A program made the translations under genes and the position numbers. Under the pieces are notes generated by a model. That model was not told where the DNA came from, made no database searches, and saw nothing but the letters and a program-made list of their open reading frames with translations. Positions 5,450-62,523 of a stretch of DNA of 64,000 nt are shown here, in pieces (the stretch's first letter is position 1; each line of letters begins with the position of its first letter). The DNA is from Escherichia phage 215Ecol030PP, in sequence record PP328843.1; one strand, given 5' to 3'.

Positions 5450-6868
5450 TTATGGATAGGTATAGATGATACCAGTTTCTAAAGCAGTTTTATGAATGAT
5501 GTATCCATTACGCGATTCTTGGACATCAACTTCTGGATAATCTTTCATCATCTTCTGAAGAGTGTAACGATGCAGGTAGTATTTACTATCTGGATCTTCA
5601 GTTTTCCAATCTTTACCTTCTTCAGTCATTTTTTGGATTTCATCCATAACCCACCAACCGCACCAGATGTAAGCTGAGCTACGATGTGGAAGAGGATGAA
5701 CATAAGGTAATTCACCTTCTGGTTCCGGAGCAGCTTTATCAGTTACCTGAACTTGACCTTCTGCTGTAATAGTTTTGCTATCATAATCAGCAGCAGTAAC
5801 AGTTGCAGTAACTTCAATAGTTTGACTTCCAACAGATGATGTATCAACGGTGTATACATTAGTTGACCCTTCTACAGGAGAAGAATCTTTCTTCCATGAA
5901 TACGTAATTTGCGCTTCTTCCGGAGCATCCGTAACGTTAGCAGTAAATGTAGCCGAAGCATCTTGCTGAACATTAATAGAAGGAGGAGTCAATGTAACCT
6001 GTGGATTCATTGTCTTCTTATTAACTGTCAATGATACTTCATTAGAAGTAACTTCCTTTTCATTATAATTTTCTGCAGTTACTTGGGCTACGCATTTAAT
6101 TCTTTTTACTCCACTTGTAGTTGGAGTATAGTTAAATGTAGAGTTAGTTTCTCCACCAACTTGTGAATCATCTACATACCACTGATACGTAGCAGACGCT
6201 CCGTCAGGTTGAGAAGCTAATGCAGCAGTAAATTGAACCGGGGTTCCAATTACTCCAGCAGCAGGACTAGCAGGAGTTACTGCCAAGGTAGTTGTCTGTG
6301 TCTTTTTATTAACTGTCAATGATACTTCATTGGAAGTAACGCTCAGTGCATCATAATCTGTCGCAGTTACTTGAGCTACACACTTAATTTTTTTAACTCC
6401 GCTTGTAGTAGGAGTATAATTGAATGTAGCAGAAGTTGCTTCGCTCACAGGAGAACCGTCAACGTACCATTGATACGTAGCAGATGCGCCCGATGGCTGC
6501 GAAGCTAAAGCAGCAGTAAATTCAACAGCTGTTCCGATTACTCCTTCTGGAGGACTATTAGGAGTTACAGCTAAGGTAGTTGTCTGTGTCTTATTTTGAA
6601 CTGTGATAGTTGTACTAATTTCAGCTGTTTCAGCTTCAGCTTCTGGAACTGTATTTGTTGCAACCACTTTAATAGTCTTTTGACCAGCAGGTCCTTTTAA
6701 TACATAATTAAAGGTTGCTTCAGCTCCATCCTGTGGAACATTATCTACACTCCAAGCATAGGTAATAGTTCCACCTTCAGTTTGACCACTGGGTGCAGCA
6801 GTAAACTGCTTGGTTTCATCAATAACCCCCGTTGGTGTTTTAGGAGTTATATCAACTGTAAAAGTCAT
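5450..6868 (-). CDS. hoc: Highly immunogenic outer capsid protein Hoc, with an extra Ig-like domain
   Basis: 472 aa; tandem Ig-like repeats and conserved C-terminal capsid-binding region; T4 Hoc is 376 aa, so about 96 aa (one domain) longer. Confidence 0.85.
   Translation of the reverse strand: MTFTVDITPKTPTGVIDETKQFTAAPSGQTEGGTITYAWSVDNVPQDGAEATFNYVLKGPAGQKTIKVVATNTVPEAEAETAEISTTITVQNKTQTTTLAVTPNSPPEGVIGTAVEFTAALASQPSGASATYQWYVDGSPVSEATSATFNYTPTTSGVKKIKCVAQVTATDYDALSVTSNEVSLTVNKKTQTTTLAVTPASPAAGVIGTPVQFTAALASQPDGASATYQWYVDDSQVGGETNSTFNYTPTTSGVKRIKCVAQVTAENYNEKEVTSNEVSLTVNKKTMNPQVTLTPPSINVQQDASATFTANVTDAPEEAQITYSWKKDSSPVEGSTNVYTVDTSSVGSQTIEVTATVTAADYDSKTITAEGQVQVTDKAAPEPEGELPYVHPLPHRSSAYIWCGWWVMDEIQKMTEEGKDWKTEDPDSKYYLHRYTLQKMMKDYPEVDVQESRNGYIIHKTALETGIIYTYP
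6013..6588 (-). repeat. Imperfect tandem duplication (2 x about 288 bp) encoding two roughly 80 percent identical Ig-like domains of Hoc
   Basis: Protein segments QTTTLAVTP...SLTVNKKT occur twice consecutively; approximate boundaries. Confidence 0.7.
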
Positions 6869-17644: not shown

Positions 17645-17648
17645 CAAT

Positions 17649-17666
17649 GGGGACCGAAAGGTCCCC
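17649..17666. terminator. Hairpin GGGGACC-GAAA-GGTCCCC between convergent genes
   Basis: Perfect 7-bp stem with GAAA loop followed by TATTTTTATTT. Confidence 0.55.
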
Positions 17667-17672
17667 ATATTT

Positions 17673-17963
17673 TTATTTACGGAATGAAATGAAAGCAGCA
17701 ACTGAAGCAACTAAACTGTCTTCAATATAAACTTCAATTTTTACCGGAGCTTCTGACTCAAATTTACCTGTTACTACACCCTGAAAAATACTTTCAGTCT
17801 GTTCTGGCTTTGAAAAATTTTCAGAAGGAAAAATTCCAAACTTTTTATCTGTTCCGAAAATTTTGATAAATTCATCATAAACCGCTTCGTTAAAAGCATT
17901 ATCAGCAGGAATAACGCCTTCAACTACAAGTTCTTGACCTAAAAAGCGTAAAGAAGATTTCAT
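17673..17963 (-). CDS. Hypothetical protein (alt-upstream region)
   Basis: 96-aa ORF with GAGGA SD, driven by the early promoter at 17995-18024. Confidence 0.6.
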   Translation of the reverse strand: MKSSLRFLGQELVVEGVIPADNAFNEAVYDEFIKIFGTDKKFGIFPSENFSKPEQTESIFQGVVTGKFESEAPVKIEVYIEDSLVASVAAFISFRK

Positions 17964-17994
17964 TTTGTGTTCCTCATGTTATGTCAGTAAGACT

Positions 17995-18024
17995 ACTATA
18001 ACACAACACGAGGGACTTGTAAAC
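17995..18024 (-). promoter_or_regulatory. T4-type early promoter (GTTTAC, 18-nt spacer, TATAGT)
   Basis: Minus-strand -35 GTTTAC and -10 TATAGT; part of a 53-bp repeat shared with the alc promoter. Confidence 0.55.
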
Positions 18025-18385
18025 TACATTTTGAACTTTTTAGTACGCGTAATAGGCATGCGTCGATTTTATACTGTTTCATTGTTTGAAGAGCAGTATC
18101 AAAAACAGCATTAATGACGCCAATTGGATTTCCACCCAAGTTTCTAAGCTTAACCAGTGATAATTTCTCGTTGACACCTATCATTACGATATGCATCATT
18201 TTATCGCCTGGCTTAACGTTTTTATTTGTATCACCGCCAGAGGTGTATGTACAAAATCTAAATCCAGGAAGCACGCTTTCTTCGTCGGCTTGAATAGCAA
18301 AAATTTGAGGTATTTTATGCTTAGGATTTAAGTTAACAACCGGCGCCGAAGCGCCGTCAAATAATTATGTAATAAGTTCCATGAT
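17996..18385 (-). pseudogene. Duplicated alt N-terminal segment interrupted by an in-frame TAA at codon 6
   Basis: Manual translation reads MELIT-stop-LFDGASAPVVNLNPKHKIPQIF...GFRFCTYTSGGDTNKNVKPGDKMMHIV..., colinear with Alt residues 2 to about 130; the ORF track reports only the GTG-initiated 92-aa distal part (17996-18274). Confidence 0.6.
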
Positions 18386-20443
18386 TTATCCTTGAACGAA
18401 CTTGTAAGGCATGTTTGCAATATCTATGCAAGACGCAATAATTCCAAGAGATGATTCTACTTTCTGTTTAACATTTGATGAAACAAATGATGCAAAGTCA
18501 ACTCTGTCTTCTATTTCAATATCACCTGTCATTGCAACTACTTCACCGGTTTCCATTAAACGGTCTCCGTCATAAATTACCGATTCGGTGAGTTCTTCTG
18601 TGGTCATAACTTCAGCTTGAATAAGCTTGTTGTTAGTTCTAACTGTTCCATCGTTGTAAGATGCATCGGTTATTTTATTAACTTTGACCATTAATCCACG
18701 TGGCAAAATGACTTCCATTTCATTTGAAGGCGCTAAACTTCCACCAGGTAAAACAACATTGACCTTATCAGCCCCAGTAATAACCCATCCAATTCCAACT
18801 AAATTATCGCTAGAATTTACTAGTCCTTCATCAGTTTTATCAATAGAAACACTTAGACGTTTTTCGTCTGGTAAAACACCTATAGATGAATCAGTCATCC
18901 AAGTACCAAAAATATTTGGATATAATGATGTTGACACAAAGTTTCTAAAATAAAAAACTCGATTTTTTACCATTGCTTCATATATTGAAGGTAACATTCG
19001 TTGTGAACGATACAAAGTAATACCTTTTGGTAATCGTTCACCATTTTTAAAGGCTGAATCTAAATTATCAATGGCTTGTTCTATTTCAGGTGCTGTTAAA
19101 ATACTTGTACGCTCATCTGGATTATATAATCCCAAAAGAGCATTATTTATGTCTACATATCCTGAACCTACATATTCACGAATTCCGCGTTTTTGCGCTG
19201 GCGTGTATTTAGATGAATCTTTATTTTCGACTATAGGATGTAATGACCATCCAGCGGTAAGAGCATATCCACGTAATTCTCTTCGAATAATCTTTGTTTT
19301 TATTGCATTCCAAGAATTTTGTACTAACTCATTTGCAGCATCTTGGTTTAAATGCGAATGTCTGTTAATATTTCTTTCAAACCAGGCACCTTTATATTTT
19401 TCTAAAGTATCATCGACGATAGAAGCAATAGTTTCTAAAGTTTTTATTGAAGTAATAGATTCTTTTCGTAATTTTTCTAAAGCTTTATTTTTTATTTCTG
19501 CATTAATAATGGATTCTTTATCTTCAGGAATTATAGAAGCTTCTCTGAATGCCATCCCAGCTGTAACACTGCTAAGAGCATTCTCTAGTGCAAATCCTGA
19601 AGTAGAAATTACCGTTAATTCATTAGAATCAGAAATTAAAGGCGCGTCCGCTGGTTTATTTAATTCTGCCGCTGAAGCCTCAAATTTTTGAAACATCGGT
19701 GTTTCAAATCTAGAAGATTCCAATGATTGACTTTGTGCAATTGCTCTACGGGAAATTTTAACTTTAACGATTACAGCTTGGTCAGAACGTTTATCATTTT
19801 CTTGTGCAATAGATGCTGCAATTGCCTCATTTTTAGTTACTTGAGCTCCAGTATCTTTATTGATATAAACATCACCGACCTTCGATTCAACCTTAGTAAA
19901 GAGCTCGGTACTAATTTCCGGAACTCCTGGAATGTCTTCTAGTGATACATTTTTGCGATGTATAAGAATATATGCATACTTTTTATCATAATCCCAGAGT
20001 TCCTTAAGAAGGACGTATCTGCCACCTGAACGACTACGGATAAGTCTATCAGCAATAACTTGAATTTGTCGAGCTTGACCAGCAGTTTTAGACTTAAGAA
20101 TACGAAGCATACAGGCATCAATTTTATACTGACGCATCGTCTGCATTGCAACAGTAAAAACTGAATTGATATAATTAATTGGGCTTGGACCAAGACCTTT
20201 CAATTTAGCAATTGAACCTTTAGCGGTTAATGTAAAAGGAACAATATGCATCATTTTATCGCCCATCTTTAAATCACGATTAGTGTCACCTCCAGATGTA
20301 TAGGTACATAAACGAAAGCCTGGTTGTTCAATTGCATCATCAACATGAACTGAAAAAATTTGCGGTATTTTCTTCTTTGGATTTAAGTTTGTAATCGGAA
20401 GAGTAGTATCTTCGTCAAATAATTCTGTAATTAGTTCCATCAT
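18386..20443 (-). CDS. alt: Alt, head-packaged ADP-ribosyltransferase
   Basis: 685 aa; T4 Alt length and position between 54 and 30. Confidence 0.88.
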   Translation of the reverse strand: MMELITELFDEDTTLPITNLNPKKKIPQIFSVHVDDAIEQPGFRLCTYTSGGDTNRDLKMGDKMMHIVPFTLTAKGSIAKLKGLGPSPINYINSVFTVAMQTMRQYKIDACMLRILKSKTAGQARQIQVIADRLIRSRSGGRYVLLKELWDYDKKYAYILIHRKNVSLEDIPGVPEISTELFTKVESKVGDVYINKDTGAQVTKNEAIAASIAQENDKRSDQAVIVKVKISRRAIAQSQSLESSRFETPMFQKFEASAAELNKPADAPLISDSNELTVISTSGFALENALSSVTAGMAFREASIIPEDKESIINAEIKNKALEKLRKESITSIKTLETIASIVDDTLEKYKGAWFERNINRHSHLNQDAANELVQNSWNAIKTKIIRRELRGYALTAGWSLHPIVENKDSSKYTPAQKRGIREYVGSGYVDINNALLGLYNPDERTSILTAPEIEQAIDNLDSAFKNGERLPKGITLYRSQRMLPSIYEAMVKNRVFYFRNFVSTSLYPNIFGTWMTDSSIGVLPDEKRLSVSIDKTDEGLVNSSDNLVGIGWVITGADKVNVVLPGGSLAPSNEMEVILPRGLMVKVNKITDASYNDGTVRTNNKLIQAEVMTTEELTESVIYDGDRLMETGEVVAMTGDIEIEDRVDFASFVSSNVKQKVESSLGIIASCIDIANMPYKFVQG

Positions 20444-20463: not shown

Positions 20464-20471
20464 TATTTATA
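20464..20471 (-). promoter_or_regulatory. T4-type late promoter (TATAAATA) upstream of alt
   Basis: Minus-strand TATAAATA about 20 nt upstream of the alt start. Confidence 0.5.
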
Positions 20472-24825: not shown

Positions 24826-24854
24826 ATAATATCATATCCTGTACCAAAGTAAAC
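24826..24854 (-). promoter_or_regulatory. T4-type early promoter (GTTTAC, 17 nt, TATTAT)
   Basis: Minus-strand consensus hexamers with 17-nt spacer. Confidence 0.55.
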
Positions 24855-30655: not shown

Positions 30656-31005
30656 TTAGAAAGGTCCTGGATGTCTTCTGCGAACTTATTAAAGGAGTTG
30701 TTGATTTGTTTTTCAACCAATCCTGGCTTATGAGCCACCACATCCGCCTTCTTTGCGTCTTTGCGCAGTTTTTCATTTTCACGCTCAATAGCAGCAATTG
30801 CCTCACGATTTTTATTATTCATCGCATCAATATAATTATATTGAATTTTTAAATCATTTAATGCTAAAGCGTTTTCATTGGCCGTTTTTGTAATTTCTAC
30901 AACAGACGTTTCTAATCTTTCAATTTTACTTTTTAAAATTAAAGAAGTTCCGCCCAATGCAATTACAATTAATAACAAACCTGCTGTCGTATTACTTAAT
31001 TGCAT
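30652..31005 (-). CDS. Hypothetical coiled-coil protein with N-terminal transmembrane segment
   Basis: 117-aa ORF; hydrophobic N-terminus then charged helical region. Confidence 0.5.
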   Translation of the reverse strand: MQLSNTTAGLLLIVIALGGTSLILKSKIERLETSVVEITKTANENALALNDLKIQYNYIDAMNNKNREAIAAIERENEKLRKDAKKADVVAHKPGLVEKQINNSFNKFAEDIQDLSK

Positions 31006-31502
31006 AAAGTTTTAATAACCTCTACAATATCGTCTTGAGAAAGACCGTTAATTAAAATATGATGTTCAGCCGGAGATTTAGAAATTTTAAAGCATGCCTC
31101 AACATCTTCTGCCATATCTGATGCGCTACGATTTGGATTACTAATTCCAAGACGATGTTTTCCCGTTAAAGGATTAACGATGATATAACATTTACAGTTG
31201 TTAATATGAACATTAGGTTGAGTCTGATTAATGAACACTTCACAGTCGTATTTCGCAAGCTGATTTTCTAAAAAGACTTTCATCTCTTCAACCGCATCAG
31301 GAAGCATATCACGGGCTTGCTCAAGACGACGATTTCGATATTCTTTAATGGTCGTTTTCCGCTTGACTTGCTTAGCTAAATCTTTCTTAAGATCGGTGAT
31401 ATATCCAACTCGCCGATTTCCTTTAAATACAGAAATCCCATCTGTAGTATCACCGTATGCTTCAACGACCATTTCAGTAGTAATAAGCTGCAAATCCATC
31501 AT
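30996..31502 (-). CDS. alc: Alc, host transcription (elongation) shutoff protein
   Basis: 167-168 aa (MMDLQLITTEM...; true start may be the second ATG at 31499); position upstream of pseT region and downstream of rnlA as in T4. Confidence 0.75.
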   Translation of the reverse strand: MMDLQLITTEMVVEAYGDTTDGISVFKGNRRVGYITDLKKDLAKQVKRKTTIKEYRNRRLEQARDMLPDAVEEMKVFLENQLAKYDCEVFINQTQPNVHINNCKCYIIVNPLTGKHRLGISNPNRSASDMAEDVEACFKISKSPAEHHILINGLSQDDIVEVIKTLCN

Positions 31503-31530
31503 AAAGTCCTCATGTTATGTCAGTAAGACT

Positions 31531-31560
31531 ACTATAACACAACACGAAGGACTTGTAAAC
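31531..31560 (-). promoter_or_regulatory. T4-type early promoter (GTTTAC, 18 nt, TATAGT) for alc
   Basis: Minus-strand hexamers; 53-bp near-identical copy of the promoter at 17972-18024. Confidence 0.55.
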
Positions 31561-31563
31561 AGC

Positions 31564-33151
<1,588 letters not shown>

Positions 33152-38134: not shown

Positions 38135-38396
38135 CATTATGTTCAGATAAGGTCGTTAATCTTATCCCGGAATTATATCCAGCTGCATGTCACCATGCAG
38201 AGCAGACTATATCTCCAACTTGTTAAAGCAAGTTGTCTATCGTTTCGAGTCACTTGACCCTACTCCCTAAAGGGATAGTCGTTAGGCATTTAGGTAGAAC
38301 CAAAGTCCTACAATTTAGCACGGGATTGTCTACTAGAGAGGTTCCCCGTTTAGATAGATTACAAGTATAAGTCACCTTATACTCAGGCCTCAATTA
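38135..38396 (-). mobile_element. Group I self-splicing intron in td, ORF-less (262 nt)
   Basis: The intron begins UAAUUGAGGCCUGAGUAUAAGGUGACUUAUAC... and ends ...CUGAACAUAAUG, which I recognise as the T4 td intron core; no I-TevI ORF is present. Confidence 0.8.
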
Positions 38397-39086
38397 ACCC
38401 AAGAAAACATCTACTGAGCGTTGATACCACTGCAAATCCAAATAGCCATTACGCACATTAAACTGATAGAACATATGACAAGGCGGTAATGCCATATATT
38501 TAAGTTCAGCTGGATTCCATGCAGAAACAATTTGACGCCTATCATTTGGCAATTTTTTAATACGATCAATAACTTCTACAATTTGGTCTACACCGCCAAA
38601 ATCACGCCATTGTTTTCCATAAATTGGACCAAGTTCACCGCTATGGTATCCTAAATCTTTTGCTTGATTTTCGTAATTTTCATCCCAGACTGTTTTGCCT
38701 TGAATTAATGAATCATGCTGAATTTGGTCTACACCGCCAAAATCACGCCATTGTTTTCCATAAATTGGACCAAGTTCACCGCTATGGTATCCTAAATCTT
38801 TTGCTTGATTTTCGTAATTTTCATCCCAGACTGTTTTGCCTTGAATTAATGAATCATGCTGAATTAATCGTAAATCATTTACGTTAGTACTTCCTGATAA
38901 GAACCAAAGTAGCTCAGCAATGCAAGCTTTCCAAGCGAGCTTCTTAGTTGTTACCGCAGGAAAACCTTTAGTTAAATCCCAGCGTAATTTAGTACCGAAC
39001 AAAGCAATTGTTCCTGTGCCTGTTCGGTCATCGGTTTCATAGCCATTTTCAAAAATGTCTTTAATTAAATCTTGGTATTGTTTCAT
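38397..39086 (-). CDS. td: Thymidylate synthase, exon 1 (contains an in-frame 47-codon tandem duplication)
   Basis: MKQYQDLIKDIFENGYETDDRTGTGT... with catalytic ALPPCHMF; the segment QHDSLIQ...GGVDQI occurs twice in a row. Confidence 0.88.
38580..38861. repeat. Perfect direct tandem duplication, 2 x 141 bp, inside td exon 1
   Basis: Positions 38580-38720 and 38721-38861 are identical by eye; junction microhomology ATT. Confidence 0.9.
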
Positions 39087-40338: not shown

Positions 40339-40638
40339 TTAAACAGACTTTTTCACAATTTTCCAATCAGCTTTAAACTGATCGACGTCAGAATGGTAAA
40401 TCCAGAATCCTGCGCTTTCTCCGTCTTCATAAAGAGGACATCCATCACATTCATCTTCCCATCCCATGTCACGTAAAAGATGTTCAGCTTTTTCAACAAG
40501 TTCAGAATCTTTACCGATGATATTAAAATACCATTTACCTCTAACTTCTGAATCTTTGATGCTCTGGCGTTGTAATCTCATTTTATTCTCCTTAGTTGAT
40601 AAGGCTATAGTATCATTACCATAGCCCGTTGTAAACAA
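40339..40638 (-). CDS. Hypothetical protein (frd.2 position)
   Basis: 99-aa ORF with AAGGAGAATAAA ATG context. Confidence 0.55.
   Translation of the reverse strand: MFTTGYGNDTIALSTKENKMRLQRQSIKDSEVRGKWYFNIIGKDSELVEKAEHLLRDMGWEDECDGCPLYEDGESAGFWIYHSDVDQFKADWKIVKKSV
40607..40636 (-). promoter_or_regulatory. T4-type early promoter (GTTTAC, 18 nt, TACTAT)
   Basis: Minus-strand hexamers upstream of ORF 40339-40638. Confidence 0.5.
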
Positions 40639-41332: not shown

Positions 41333-41623
41333 TTATTGTTCAATCAGTCCCATGTAAAATTCTGCGTCTTCAGAATCCATGCCATCACAATATTCATTAG
41401 CCATAAAGCGGGTGAGGTCTTCAAGAGGACCTTCAATAACGATTTGAATACTCCAAAACTTAGAATCTTGTACGCTTGTGATACTAAGTTCAGGATAACG
41501 ATTACGAATAATCTCTTCAATATATTCAAAATCAACGATGTCAATATCAACTTTAGCCATATTATTTTCCTCTTTAATCATCAGCAGTATTGCCGATAGT
41601 TGTATAGTACCATGGAAGGACAA
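41333..41623 (-). CDS. Hypothetical protein
   Basis: 96-aa acidic ORF with AGAGGAAAATAAT ATG context. Confidence 0.5.
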
Positions 41624-41633
41624 GGATGTAAAC
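41604..41633 (-). promoter_or_regulatory. T4-type early promoter (GTTTAC, 18 nt, TACTAT) with upstream A/T-rich element
   Basis: Minus-strand hexamers; member of a repeated promoter cassette family (see findings). Confidence 0.5.
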
Positions 41634-41664
41634 CGTTTTGTGAAAAAATTTTTGAAATAAAAAA

Positions 41665-41683
41665 GGGGACCTCTAGGGTCCCC
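41665..41683 (-). terminator. Intrinsic terminator downstream of gene 32
   Basis: GGGGACC-CTAGA-GGTCCCC hairpin followed on the minus strand by TTTTTTATTTC. Confidence 0.6.
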
Positions 41684-41705
41684 AATTAATTAGTAATATA
41701 ATCTA

Positions 41706-58220: not shown

Positions 58221-58269
58221 TTTTTGTATCTCCGGGTTGTTTGTTTCAGTTCATTTATTTGATAGTTGT

Positions 58270-58299
58270 ATAGTACCACAGTATGCTTTGGTTGTAAAC
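58270..58299 (-). promoter_or_regulatory. T4-type early promoter (GTTTAC, 18 nt, TACTAT)
   Basis: Minus-strand hexamers; member of the repeated promoter cassette family. Confidence 0.5.
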
Positions 58300-58330
58300 C
58301 GTTTTGTGAAAAAATTTTTGAAATAAAAAA

Positions 58331-58350
58331 GGGAGAGCCGAGGCTCTCCC
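58331..58350 (-). terminator. Intrinsic terminator downstream of the gene 52 operon
   Basis: GGGAGAGCC-GA-GGCTCTCCC hairpin followed on the minus strand by TTTTTTATTTC. Confidence 0.55.
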
Positions 58351-58355
58351 TAAAA

Positions 58356-58505
58356 TTACTGCATGACTGTGATAACTGTCATGATAACACGTTGAATTCC
58401 GAACGCAAGAAGACCTCCTGCTACGGCAGGAACAACACCTAAACCCGCCAGTAAAATGCCACCAGATACTAATGCAGCGCTTGTGATACCAATGAATGGA
58501 CTCAT
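58356..58505 (-). CDS. Small hydrophobic protein (49 aa)
   Basis: Manually translated ORF MSPFIGITSAALVSGGILLAGLGVV... overlapping the gene 52 stop (ATGA); below the ORF-track cutoff. Confidence 0.35.
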   Translation of the reverse strand: MSPFIGITSAALVSGGILLAGLGVVPAVAGGLLAFGIQRVIMTVITVMQ

Positions 58506-61282: not shown

Positions 61283-61517
61283 AGTAAACGTTTAATACAT
61301 CAATCATTAAAACGATTGGGAATATACTCAAAACTACTAGTATTATAACTACATTCCATATAGCTTTAACAATCTTTTTCATTTTCTGTTCCTCCGTAGT
61401 TGATAGGGTAATAATACCACAGAGGAACAGTCTTGTAAACAACTTTTTTAAAAATATTCGTAATAAATGTGAATACCAACTACTACCGCTGAAACCTGTG
61501 CAACCCACCACGCGCAA
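61269..61517 (-). CDS. Hypothetical membrane protein
   Basis: 82-aa ORF with a C-terminal hydrophobic segment. Confidence 0.4.
   Translation of the reverse strand: MRVVGCTGFSGSSWYSHLLRIFLKKLFTRLFLCGIITLSTTEEQKMKKIVKAIWNVVIILVVLSIFPIVLMIDVLNVYFGFM
61412..61441 (-). promoter_or_regulatory. T4-type early promoter (GTTTAC, 18 nt, TATTAT)
   Basis: Minus-strand hexamers; lies inside the 5-prime part of ORF 61269-61517, which makes that ORF's upstream portion doubtful. Confidence 0.45.
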
Positions 61518-61889: not shown

Positions 61890-61916
61890 TTTTACTCCTC
61901 CGTAGCTGATAGTTGT

Positions 61917-61946
61917 ATAGTACCACAGTCCTTGTGGTATGTAAAC
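61917..61946 (-). promoter_or_regulatory. T4-type early promoter (GTTTAC, 18 nt, TACTAT)
   Basis: Minus-strand hexamers upstream of ORF 61626-61889. Confidence 0.5.
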
Positions 61947-61965
61947 TGTTTTGTGAAAAAATTTT

Positions 61966-62523
61966 TTAAATGGAAAGATACCATCCGTTGTAGTTGCTTT
62001 TTCTTACAACCTTACGAAGGTCTTCTCTGTCACCGATGAACTTCGGAGTGTACTGGATGACACCTGGATGAATTTCTTTAGTGTTGAATATAATTATACA
62101 GTCAGCGACTTGATGATTTAGAATGGGCCCTAGATTTATTCCAGAACCATATGGATACTCTCCGCTGCATCCGGTTGTTACCGAAATCCAACGTGAGTCA
62201 GTTTGATGTGTCTTAACTTCTACACGAAGCCCACAGTATTTTGGATGCGCCAAAACATCCCATGCATATGTGTACGGATCATCGACATCTTCTTGACCTT
62301 TGTTAACATACCCGCTCAGCCAATCTGCTACAAAAAATTCTGCGTACACAGCGATACGGCATCTTTCGATAACTTCTGCCTTATCTTGATTTGGGTTTTG
62401 TTTTAAAGAGTATCTTGCTGTATCAGCAATTTTGGCCTTCATTTCACTAGTCAAGTCACTGTTCGATAGGGTAAATGTCGGAATCTGAAATAGTCTCTGT
62501 AACCCAGGATTCGTTTTCTGCAT
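61966..62523 (-). CDS. denB: Putative endonuclease IV (DenB)
   Basis: 185 aa; length and position upstream of ndd and downstream of rIIB match T4 denB; assignment by synteny. Confidence 0.6.
   Translation of the reverse strand: MQKTNPGLQRLFQIPTFTLSNSDLTSEMKAKIADTARYSLKQNPNQDKAEVIERCRIAVYAEFFVADWLSGYVNKGQEDVDDPYTYAWDVLAHPKYCGLRVEVKTHQTDSRWISVTTGCSGEYPYGSGINLGPILNHQVADCIIIFNTKEIHPGVIQYTPKFIGDREDLRKVVRKSNYNGWYLSI

Follow-up and report, generated by a model that had tools for sequence, protein, structure and literature searches.

The promoters of alc and alt.-3 in Escherichia phage 215Ecol030PP (sequence record PP328843.1) lie in two nearly identical cassettes, in which the promoter spacer is complementary to the leader and Shine-Dalgarno (SD) sequence that follow it. 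RNA arriving from the upstream gene is predicted to fold these two strands into a hairpin that buries the SD, and on balance we lean towards the view that this promoter-embedded structure confines translation of alc and alt.-3 to RNA initiated at their own promoters. The stretch of DNA analysed here in its entirety (the window) comprises 64,000 nucleotides and is a Tequatrovirus sequence about 97% identical to T4.

A repeat finder run over the window returned a 54-nt minus-strand repeat identical at 53 of 54 positions (98%), whose copies precede alt.-3 (copy 1) and alc (copy 2), lie 13,536 nt apart and share the same orientation, making them direct repeats. An earlier note on this DNA had reported a 53-bp repeat with one mismatch at a distance of 13.5 kb, and this was recovered exactly where described, at 17972–18024 with no mismatch to the quoted 53-mer and at 31508–31560 with one (G/A), the self-alignment, run as a repeat search, lengthening it by one base. 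No third copy of the 53-mer was present in the window at up to three mismatches, and none of 100 dinucleotide shuffles of the window yielded two matches to it. Identity between the copies breaks off sharply upstream of GTTTAC and immediately past GAGGA. As the note had maintained, the likeness goes beyond the hexamers to include spacer and leader, and it far exceeds the usual family resemblance of early promoters: in a comparison of 66 pairs of early-promoter-like sites in the window, the cassette pair has 40 of 41 spacer and leader positions in common, whereas the remaining pairs average 15.9 (sd 3.9, maximum 26).

Judged by its sequence, each copy is a σ70-type early promoter followed by a leader and an SD, with a putative transcription start (Table 1). 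A σ70 consensus scan of the minus strand found TTTACA-17 nt-TATAGT in both, with TG before the −10 element and 10 of 12 consensus matches; this is the same site as the GTTTAC-18-TATAGT of the earlier note, which had correctly described a minus-strand early promoter with leader and SD. The arrangement of −35 element, spacer of about 17 nt, TGn and −10 element typical of T4 early promoters is thus present at both copies. Phage Lutter carries an annotated promoter at the site corresponding to copy 1, and a promoter feature is recorded in phage SA21RB beneath the match to copy 2; a literature search for genome-wide T4 start-site data found none. Upstream of the two promoters, where A/T-rich UP elements of T4 early promoters would lie (−40 to −60), the sequences are the coding 3′ ends of alt.-2 and rnlA, both A-rich and differing between the copies. 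An intrinsic terminator was considered for the dyad within each cassette and rejected, as the combination of a G+C-rich stem and a U run was not found: the stems continue with UAUGAUGG and ACAAAAUG rather than a U-tract, and the terminator scan made no call at either copy. Membership in a known RNA family was likewise rejected, an Rfam search returning only chance matches to microRNA precursors (13–15 bits against thresholds of 83–98) and no score at the gathering threshold.

The genomic setting differs between the two copies. Between alt and copy 1 lies alt.-1/alt.-2, a decayed remnant (18186–18343 is 72% identical to 20241–20398) in which the alt.-2 reading frame terminates at a TAG within the −10 element of copy 1; it is missing from T2, SV76, G28 and Ge15, where alt directly adjoins the cassette. 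The first strong minus-strand terminator candidate downstream of alt follows alt.-3, with none before that gene, and the terminator scan found no terminator between the rnlA stop codon and copy 2. Read-through into the cassettes is expected because no terminator intervenes, and we infer both this entry of upstream transcripts and a block on their translation. In T4 omics data, alc and alt.-3 are both classed as early RNA and early protein, alt as late, and rnlA as early RNA with late protein, a timing that agrees with an early promoter of its own for each gene and is compatible with insulation. The alc start in the T4 annotation is the second ATG (31499). Upstream of rnlA, at about 32700–32745 on the minus strand, a putative MotA-type middle promoter (AATGCTTCCA...TACTAT) was noticed whose spacer holds a dyad, CCACATGGAATGTGG, resembling the alt.-3 spacer dyads of other genera and that of the alc promoter of PhAPEC2; rnlA has no entry in the middle promoter table of the Hinton review (PMC2988021).

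Table 1. Positions in the window of the two cassettes, their predicted hairpins and the neighbouring genes and signals
Feature	Position	Strand	Remarks
Cassette copy 1	17971..18024	-	upstream of alt.-3; sequence match, repeat, promoter scan
Copy 1, −35 TTTACA	18023-18018	-	
Copy 1, TGn	18003-18001	-	
Copy 1, −10 TATAGT	18000-17995	-	
Copy 1, transcription start	near A at 17988	-	start inferred
Copy 1, SD GAGGA	17975-17971	-	
Copy 1, predicted hairpin	17969..18016	-	5′ arm 18016-18000 (spacer); 3′ arm 17985-17969 (leader + SD)
Cassette copy 2	31507..31560	-	fills the whole rnlA-alc intergenic gap; sequence match, repeat, promoter scan
Copy 2, −35 TTTACA	31559-31554	-	
Copy 2, −10 TATAGT	31536-31531	-	
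Copy 2, transcription start	near A at 31524	-	start inferred
Copy 2, SD GAGGA	31511-31507	-	
Copy 2, predicted hairpin	31504..31554	-	5′ arm 31554-31536; 3′ arm 31521-31504
Terminator-like hairpin, bidirectional	17647..17668	.	after alt.-3
alt.-3 CDS	17673..17963	-	96 aa; downstream of copy 1
alt.-1/alt.-2 remnant	17996..18385	-	partial duplicate of the alt 5′ part
alt	18386..20443	-	late gene; its transcripts would run into copy 1
Late-promoter motif TATAAATA	20464..20471	-	just upstream of alt; terminator hairpin before motif
alc CDS	30996..31502	-	inhibitor of host transcription; downstream of copy 2
rnlA (gene 63)	31564..32688	-	stop codon 3 nt before the −35 G of copy 2

The 17-nt promoter spacer AAGUCCCUCGUGUUGUGU is the reverse complement, allowing for G-U pairs, of the leader and SD GACAUAACAUGAGGA, a pairing lengthened in the alc copy by CUU, three final paired bases (31506–31504) that lie outside the repeat. 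In read-through RNA these strands are predicted to form a hairpin of 20–22 bp with a 3′ arm ending in AUGAGGA, the computed folds having energies of −23 (copy 1) and −27.3 kcal/mol (copy 2) and z-scores of −4.5 and −5.5, with none of 200 shuffles as stable; in copy 1 the apical stem and loop cover the −10 element and the start region. The SD is completely paired in the predicted minimum-energy fold of the read-through RNA of both copies, and its computed probability of being open is 3.6e-5 in long RNA versus 0.12 in short RNA beginning at the inferred +1 for alc, and 7e-9 versus 0.07 for alt.-3. The 5′ arm consists of the promoter spacer, so that transcripts initiated downstream of the −10 element necessarily lack it. 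The complementarity of the spacer to the leader and SD as arms of an RNA hairpin was overlooked in the earlier note, and it would supply a possible selective reason for the joint conservation of spacer and leader.

Sequence variation within Tequatrovirus provides weak evidence that this pairing is selected. All of the main-stem substitutions seen keep or improve pairing (C>U opposite G, G>A opposite U on three occasions, C>U at the bulge, and a C>U that turns C-A into U-A), although they are exclusively transitions, roughly half or more of which would keep pairing by chance. No two-sided compensatory changes were found within the genus, where the 3′ arm is invariant, so that every shuffle reproduces the observed value and the control cannot discriminate. 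A comparison of sense and antisense folding, used as a test of RNA versus DNA, gave a mixed outcome across lineages: the sense strand folds 6–10 kcal/mol better in Tequatrovirus, where three G-U pairs of the stems become C-A mismatches on the opposite strand, equally well in Karamvirus and Moonvirus, and worse in two Klebsiella phages.

Across genera, spacer and leader co-vary. The rnlA-alc gap invariably contains GTTTACA directly after the rnlA stop codon, a −10 element, a TAC at the expected start (T36-A37-C38 in the alignment of alc upstream regions) and an SD. The SD pairs with a spacer whose sequence differs in five of the seven sampled lineages, namely Karamvirus, Moonvirus, Dhakavirus (represented by two phages) and two Klebsiella phages. 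The alc hairpins of Karamvirus and Moonvirus are 17 bp long with z-scores of about −6.4, that of Dhakavirus comprises 9 bp over GAGGAGA, and the two Klebsiella phages have weaker folds (z −0.3 and −1.3). In Kanagawavirus the partner of the alc spacer is leader sequence immediately 5′ to the SD, the 3′ arm ending 3 nt short of it, and the alc locus of Mosigvirus PhAPEC2 is without such a hairpin. Because leader lengths differ, a cross-genus MAFFT alignment of the alc upstream region is not in structural register, and a permutation test was therefore used rather than columnwise covariation. Spacer–leader duplexes from the same phage average −17.7 kcal/mol versus −10.6 for mismatched phage pairs, and the true assignment ranks best of all 720 permutations.

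Other early promoters of the window echo this arrangement. For 11 independent early promoters, duplexes between the spacer and leader of the same promoter average −10.7 versus −6.7 for mismatched ones (permutation p about 1e-5), with four same-promoter pairs ranking first among the window's spacer–leader duplexes. The design is found in some form at about half of the window's remaining early promoters and is lacking at about half. The SD is also buried at the minus-strand promoters with −35 sites at 61439 (−23.2 kcal/mol, z −5.9) and 25245, which are related to each other (repeat family D12) and whose differences are compensatory; at those with −35 sites at 24853 and 28262 the hairpin encloses only the −10 element, and at 40635 the spacer again pairs with its own leader. 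Two of the three promoters preceded by a terminator are without an embedded hairpin, an anecdotal hint that an upstream terminator and the absence of such a hairpin are linked. We tentatively entertain, with rather less confidence than our reading of the two cassettes themselves, the possibility that SD-burying hairpins around early promoters represent an uncatalogued general design of T4-type phages, in which the spacer doubles as an anti-SD, the alc/alt.-3 repeat being one such module, copied whole between the two loci.

The duplication of the cassette itself is old. Comparison of both loci in related phages, which the earlier note had proposed as a check, showed the two copies to be present genus-wide: T4, T2 and about 500 Tequatrovirus records contain them, nearly all at two places per record. 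The duplication thus predates the radiation of Tequatrovirus phages, and the suggestion that it was recent does not hold. Searches further afield yielded seven matching stretches in IMG/VR, and a metagenome scan with a 17-nt degenerate core produced mostly chance matches, with two further T4-like copies among the matches listed. Within single genomes the copies are identical at 54 of 54 positions in one IMG/VR contig and in G28, at 53 in T4 and in the window, and at 49 in T2. T4 has its single mismatch in the alt.-3 leader (G>A), a position different from that in the window, where it is a C>T in the alc spacer. For gene conversion, also raised in the earlier note, support is limited: G28 carries the two derived changes TATAATAAT at both loci, whereas in T2 the two copies are unlike at 5 of the 54 positions. 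Both loci segregate for the same G/A polymorphisms. Taken together, these patterns hint at occasional conversion between the loci, with parallel change towards the TATAAT consensus as the alternative.

Sequence comparison indicates that the alt.-3 cassette was most likely derived from that of alc. In Dhakavirus, Mosigvirus, Marfavirus, Kanagawavirus and Karamvirus the alt.-3 promoter is different, with a dyad internal to the spacer and a free SD, and in the alc copy the repeat bases A7, A8 and G9 pair with the CUU just outside the repeat, which they cannot do in the alt.-3 copy. The repeat edges fall on motifs common to many early promoters, GTTTACA and ACAUGAGGA, and the alc core may have replaced that of the alt.-3 promoter by recombination at these short shared −35 and SD motifs, a copy-replacement at short homologies of the kind proposed for the promoter-early stem-loop (PeSL) cassettes discussed below. 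The alt.-3 spacer of T2-type phages has undergone the changes C11U, C15U and G16A and forms a bulge-free duplex with its own leader that takes in the locus-specific AC beyond the SD. In JK45 a related cassette (L009, 1503–1563, minus strand) precedes a small ORF located between ndd and denB. It matches the alt.-3 copy at 87% identity over the −10 element, start region and leader, down to GAGGAACACAAAATG, and its different spacer pairs with its own leader (GTAGGA with TCCTAC). The search that recovered JK45 placed 72 records in the 80–90% identity band.

The earlier note had further suggested that recombination between the copies could delete or invert the DNA between them. A crossover could indeed delete (or duplicate) the 13.5-kb interval, but inversion does not apply to direct repeats. 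The interval contains DNA ligase (gene 30), gene 31, cd and pseT; since the first two are essential in T4, a phage with the deletion should not survive. At 54 bp, the repeat is close to the lower limit quoted for T4 recombination. The only rearrangement seen near the cassettes is in G28, where a 351-bp tandem duplication (L138, 2590–3000) spans the rnlA 3′ end, the cassette and the 5′ part of alc; it yields a truncated alc and a second copy of the cassette, with its junction in coding sequence outside the cassette.

Several other repeats were observed in the window. A perfect 141-nt (47-codon, in-frame) tandem duplication at 38580–38861 lies within exon 1 of td (ORF 38394–39086, minus strand) and adjoins the td group I intron at 38183–38406; because the corresponding stretch measures 400 nt in the nearest relatives and 541 nt in the window, it is either private to 215Ecol030PP or an assembly artefact. 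A 98-nt repeat family occupies 41595–41692, 58261–58358 and 61908–62005, the former two consisting of a terminator hairpin, an A/T-rich stretch and an early promoter in the classic PeSL layout, and the third being 60% identical and without the terminator; no embedded SD-burying hairpin was found in any of the three copies. A 288-nt tandem repeat at 6011–6586 consists of two copies that are 79% identical.

In the mechanism that we propose for alc and alt.-3, each copy would act as a self-contained minus-strand early cassette composed of a strong σ70 promoter, a leader of about 18–20 nt and the SD GAGGA, placed 4–8 nt ahead of the start codon. Late alt transcripts reading into alt.-3, and denA/rnlA transcripts reading into alc, would fold the hairpin and sequester the SD. 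RNA from the cassette's own promoter would begin within the loop and, because the 5′ arm is the spacer itself, would be without this arm, leaving its SD free. Both genes would then be translated solely from their own early promoters and be insulated from the timing of the upstream gene, and the copies would be kept alike by selection on promoter, SD and pairing, together with occasional conversion. Ribosomes that finish translating the upstream gene 3 nt before the hairpin might, on the other hand, be able to open it.

Other explanations account for parts of these data. In its published sense a PeSL would attenuate or terminate upstream transcription, its sequence serving mainly as a recombination linker and the pairing of the SD being incidental. 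This we consider unlikely here, even though the anatomy matches the published description, the alc-to-alt.-3 copy is bounded by shared motifs, structural polymorphisms lie beside both copies (alt.-1/alt.-2 is present in some phages and missing from others, and G28 has its tandem duplication), and JK45-type phages have a related cassette at a third locus. The lack of a U-tract or a terminator call speaks against termination, the G28 junction lies in coding sequence rather than in the cassette, the genes flanking each copy are not variable ORFans but pairs conserved across genera, and from genus to genus it is usually the SD in particular that the 3′ arm covers. A simpler account would have the promoter copied once, with promoter, start region and SD each under its own constraint and the hairpin a functionless by-product. 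These regions are in any case at least 95% identical throughout Tequatrovirus, two-sided covariation is not seen within the genus, and an invariant 3′ arm is what separate constraints on leader and SD would produce. Such a plain duplication nevertheless strikes us as still less probable than a PeSL, given that spacers are otherwise the least conserved part of the window's early promoters (the next-best promoter pairs have 4–11 of 17 spacer positions in common), that other genera and other promoters retain the complementarity through different sequences, and that fold z-scores range from −4.5 to −6.5.

Two further readings appear very improbable. The duplex might be a processing site, cut by RNase III or another enzyme in the polycistronic RNA to separate the upstream and downstream messages, and at 20–22 bp the Tequatrovirus stem has sufficient length for RNase III. 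The conserved basal helix over the SD, however, measures only 7–9 bp in Dhakavirus and Klebsiella phage Roth01, with weak or interrupted pairing beyond it, implying that what is conserved is pairing of the SD and not a long uninterrupted duplex; nor did any Rfam family match. We give equally little credence to an element acting in DNA, whereby the dyad would modulate promoter activity as a cruciform or a protein-binding site. The dyad does enclose the −10 element, the Karamvirus and Moonvirus stems are without G-U pairs, and some lineages fold equally well or better in antisense, yet it is the complementarity that is conserved across genera and not the sequence, and the three G-U pairs and better sense folding in Tequatrovirus would favour a role in RNA.

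Should translation of alc and alt.-3 indeed be confined in this way, an immediate-early gene would stay silent on read-through middle or late RNA. A working hairpin would mean that the promoter spacers of T4-type phages hold a second code, an anti-SD strand, which would explain the joint conservation of spacer and leader, and that Alc, an inhibitor of host transcription, is not made from later read-through RNA, beside the late-needed alt and possibly rnlA. Phage engineering could then make use of the cassette as a portable, insulating module for expression. Were the hairpin functionless, what would remain is a pair of well-conserved paralogous early promoters, already found in reference T4.

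Three known systems invite comparison. T4 early promoters are described as combining UP, −35, TGn and −10 elements (Hinton 2010, PMC2988021), and the cassettes resemble them in their −35, TGn and −10 matches and in lying directly upstream of genes classed as early, differing in that an UP element is not part of the repeat and in a spacer and leader likeness well beyond that of the ordinary early promoters in the window. PeSL cassettes of T4-like phages (Arbiol et al. 2010, PMC2839356; Comeau et al. 2014, PMC4122927) are strong σ70-like early promoters that carry an SD and ATG at their 3′ end, occupy intergenic positions, recur within a genome and have a stem-loop between the −35 and −10 elements or over the −10; the T4/PST promoter consensus TTTACW-N17-TAYWAT given there fits the cassette. 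Both copies likewise place an early promoter with SD and ATG in an intergenic gap and have a stable predicted stem-loop in or beside the promoter, here enclosing the −10 element. Polymorphism near the cassettes takes the form of an indel beside copy 1 and the G28 duplication beside copy 2, whose junction lies outside the cassette. The cassettes differ from PeSLs in lying between conserved genes instead of variable ORFans and in having neither a poly-G/poly-C stem nor a U-tract. PeSLs have been assigned the roles of attenuator and linker for recombination; in the two cassettes the SD itself forms the 3′ arm, suggesting translational control instead.

A parallel to the proposed mechanism is offered by T4 e, soc, 49 and I-TevI, whose ribosome-binding sites are hidden by hairpins and which have an internal promoter (Uzan and Miller 2010, PMC3014915); alc and alt.-3 are absent from the list of such genes in that review. 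As in those genes, a helix in the long transcript would hide the SD or AUG, and a promoter within the region of the 5′ strand would give rise to a shorter, translatable RNA: the SD is paired, by prediction, in upstream-initiated RNA, and RNA from the internal promoter is without the 5′ arm. The temporal order would be reversed, however, for e, soc, 49 and I-TevI have a late internal promoter and a silent early or middle RNA, whereas the promoter of the cassette is early and its silent RNA would be the later or upstream-initiated one. The late-promoter motif TATAAATA is absent from the cassette, and because its promoter is of the early σ70 and not the late TATAAATA type, the cassette is probably best viewed as a variant of the e/soc/49/I-TevI arrangement rather than a strict member of it.
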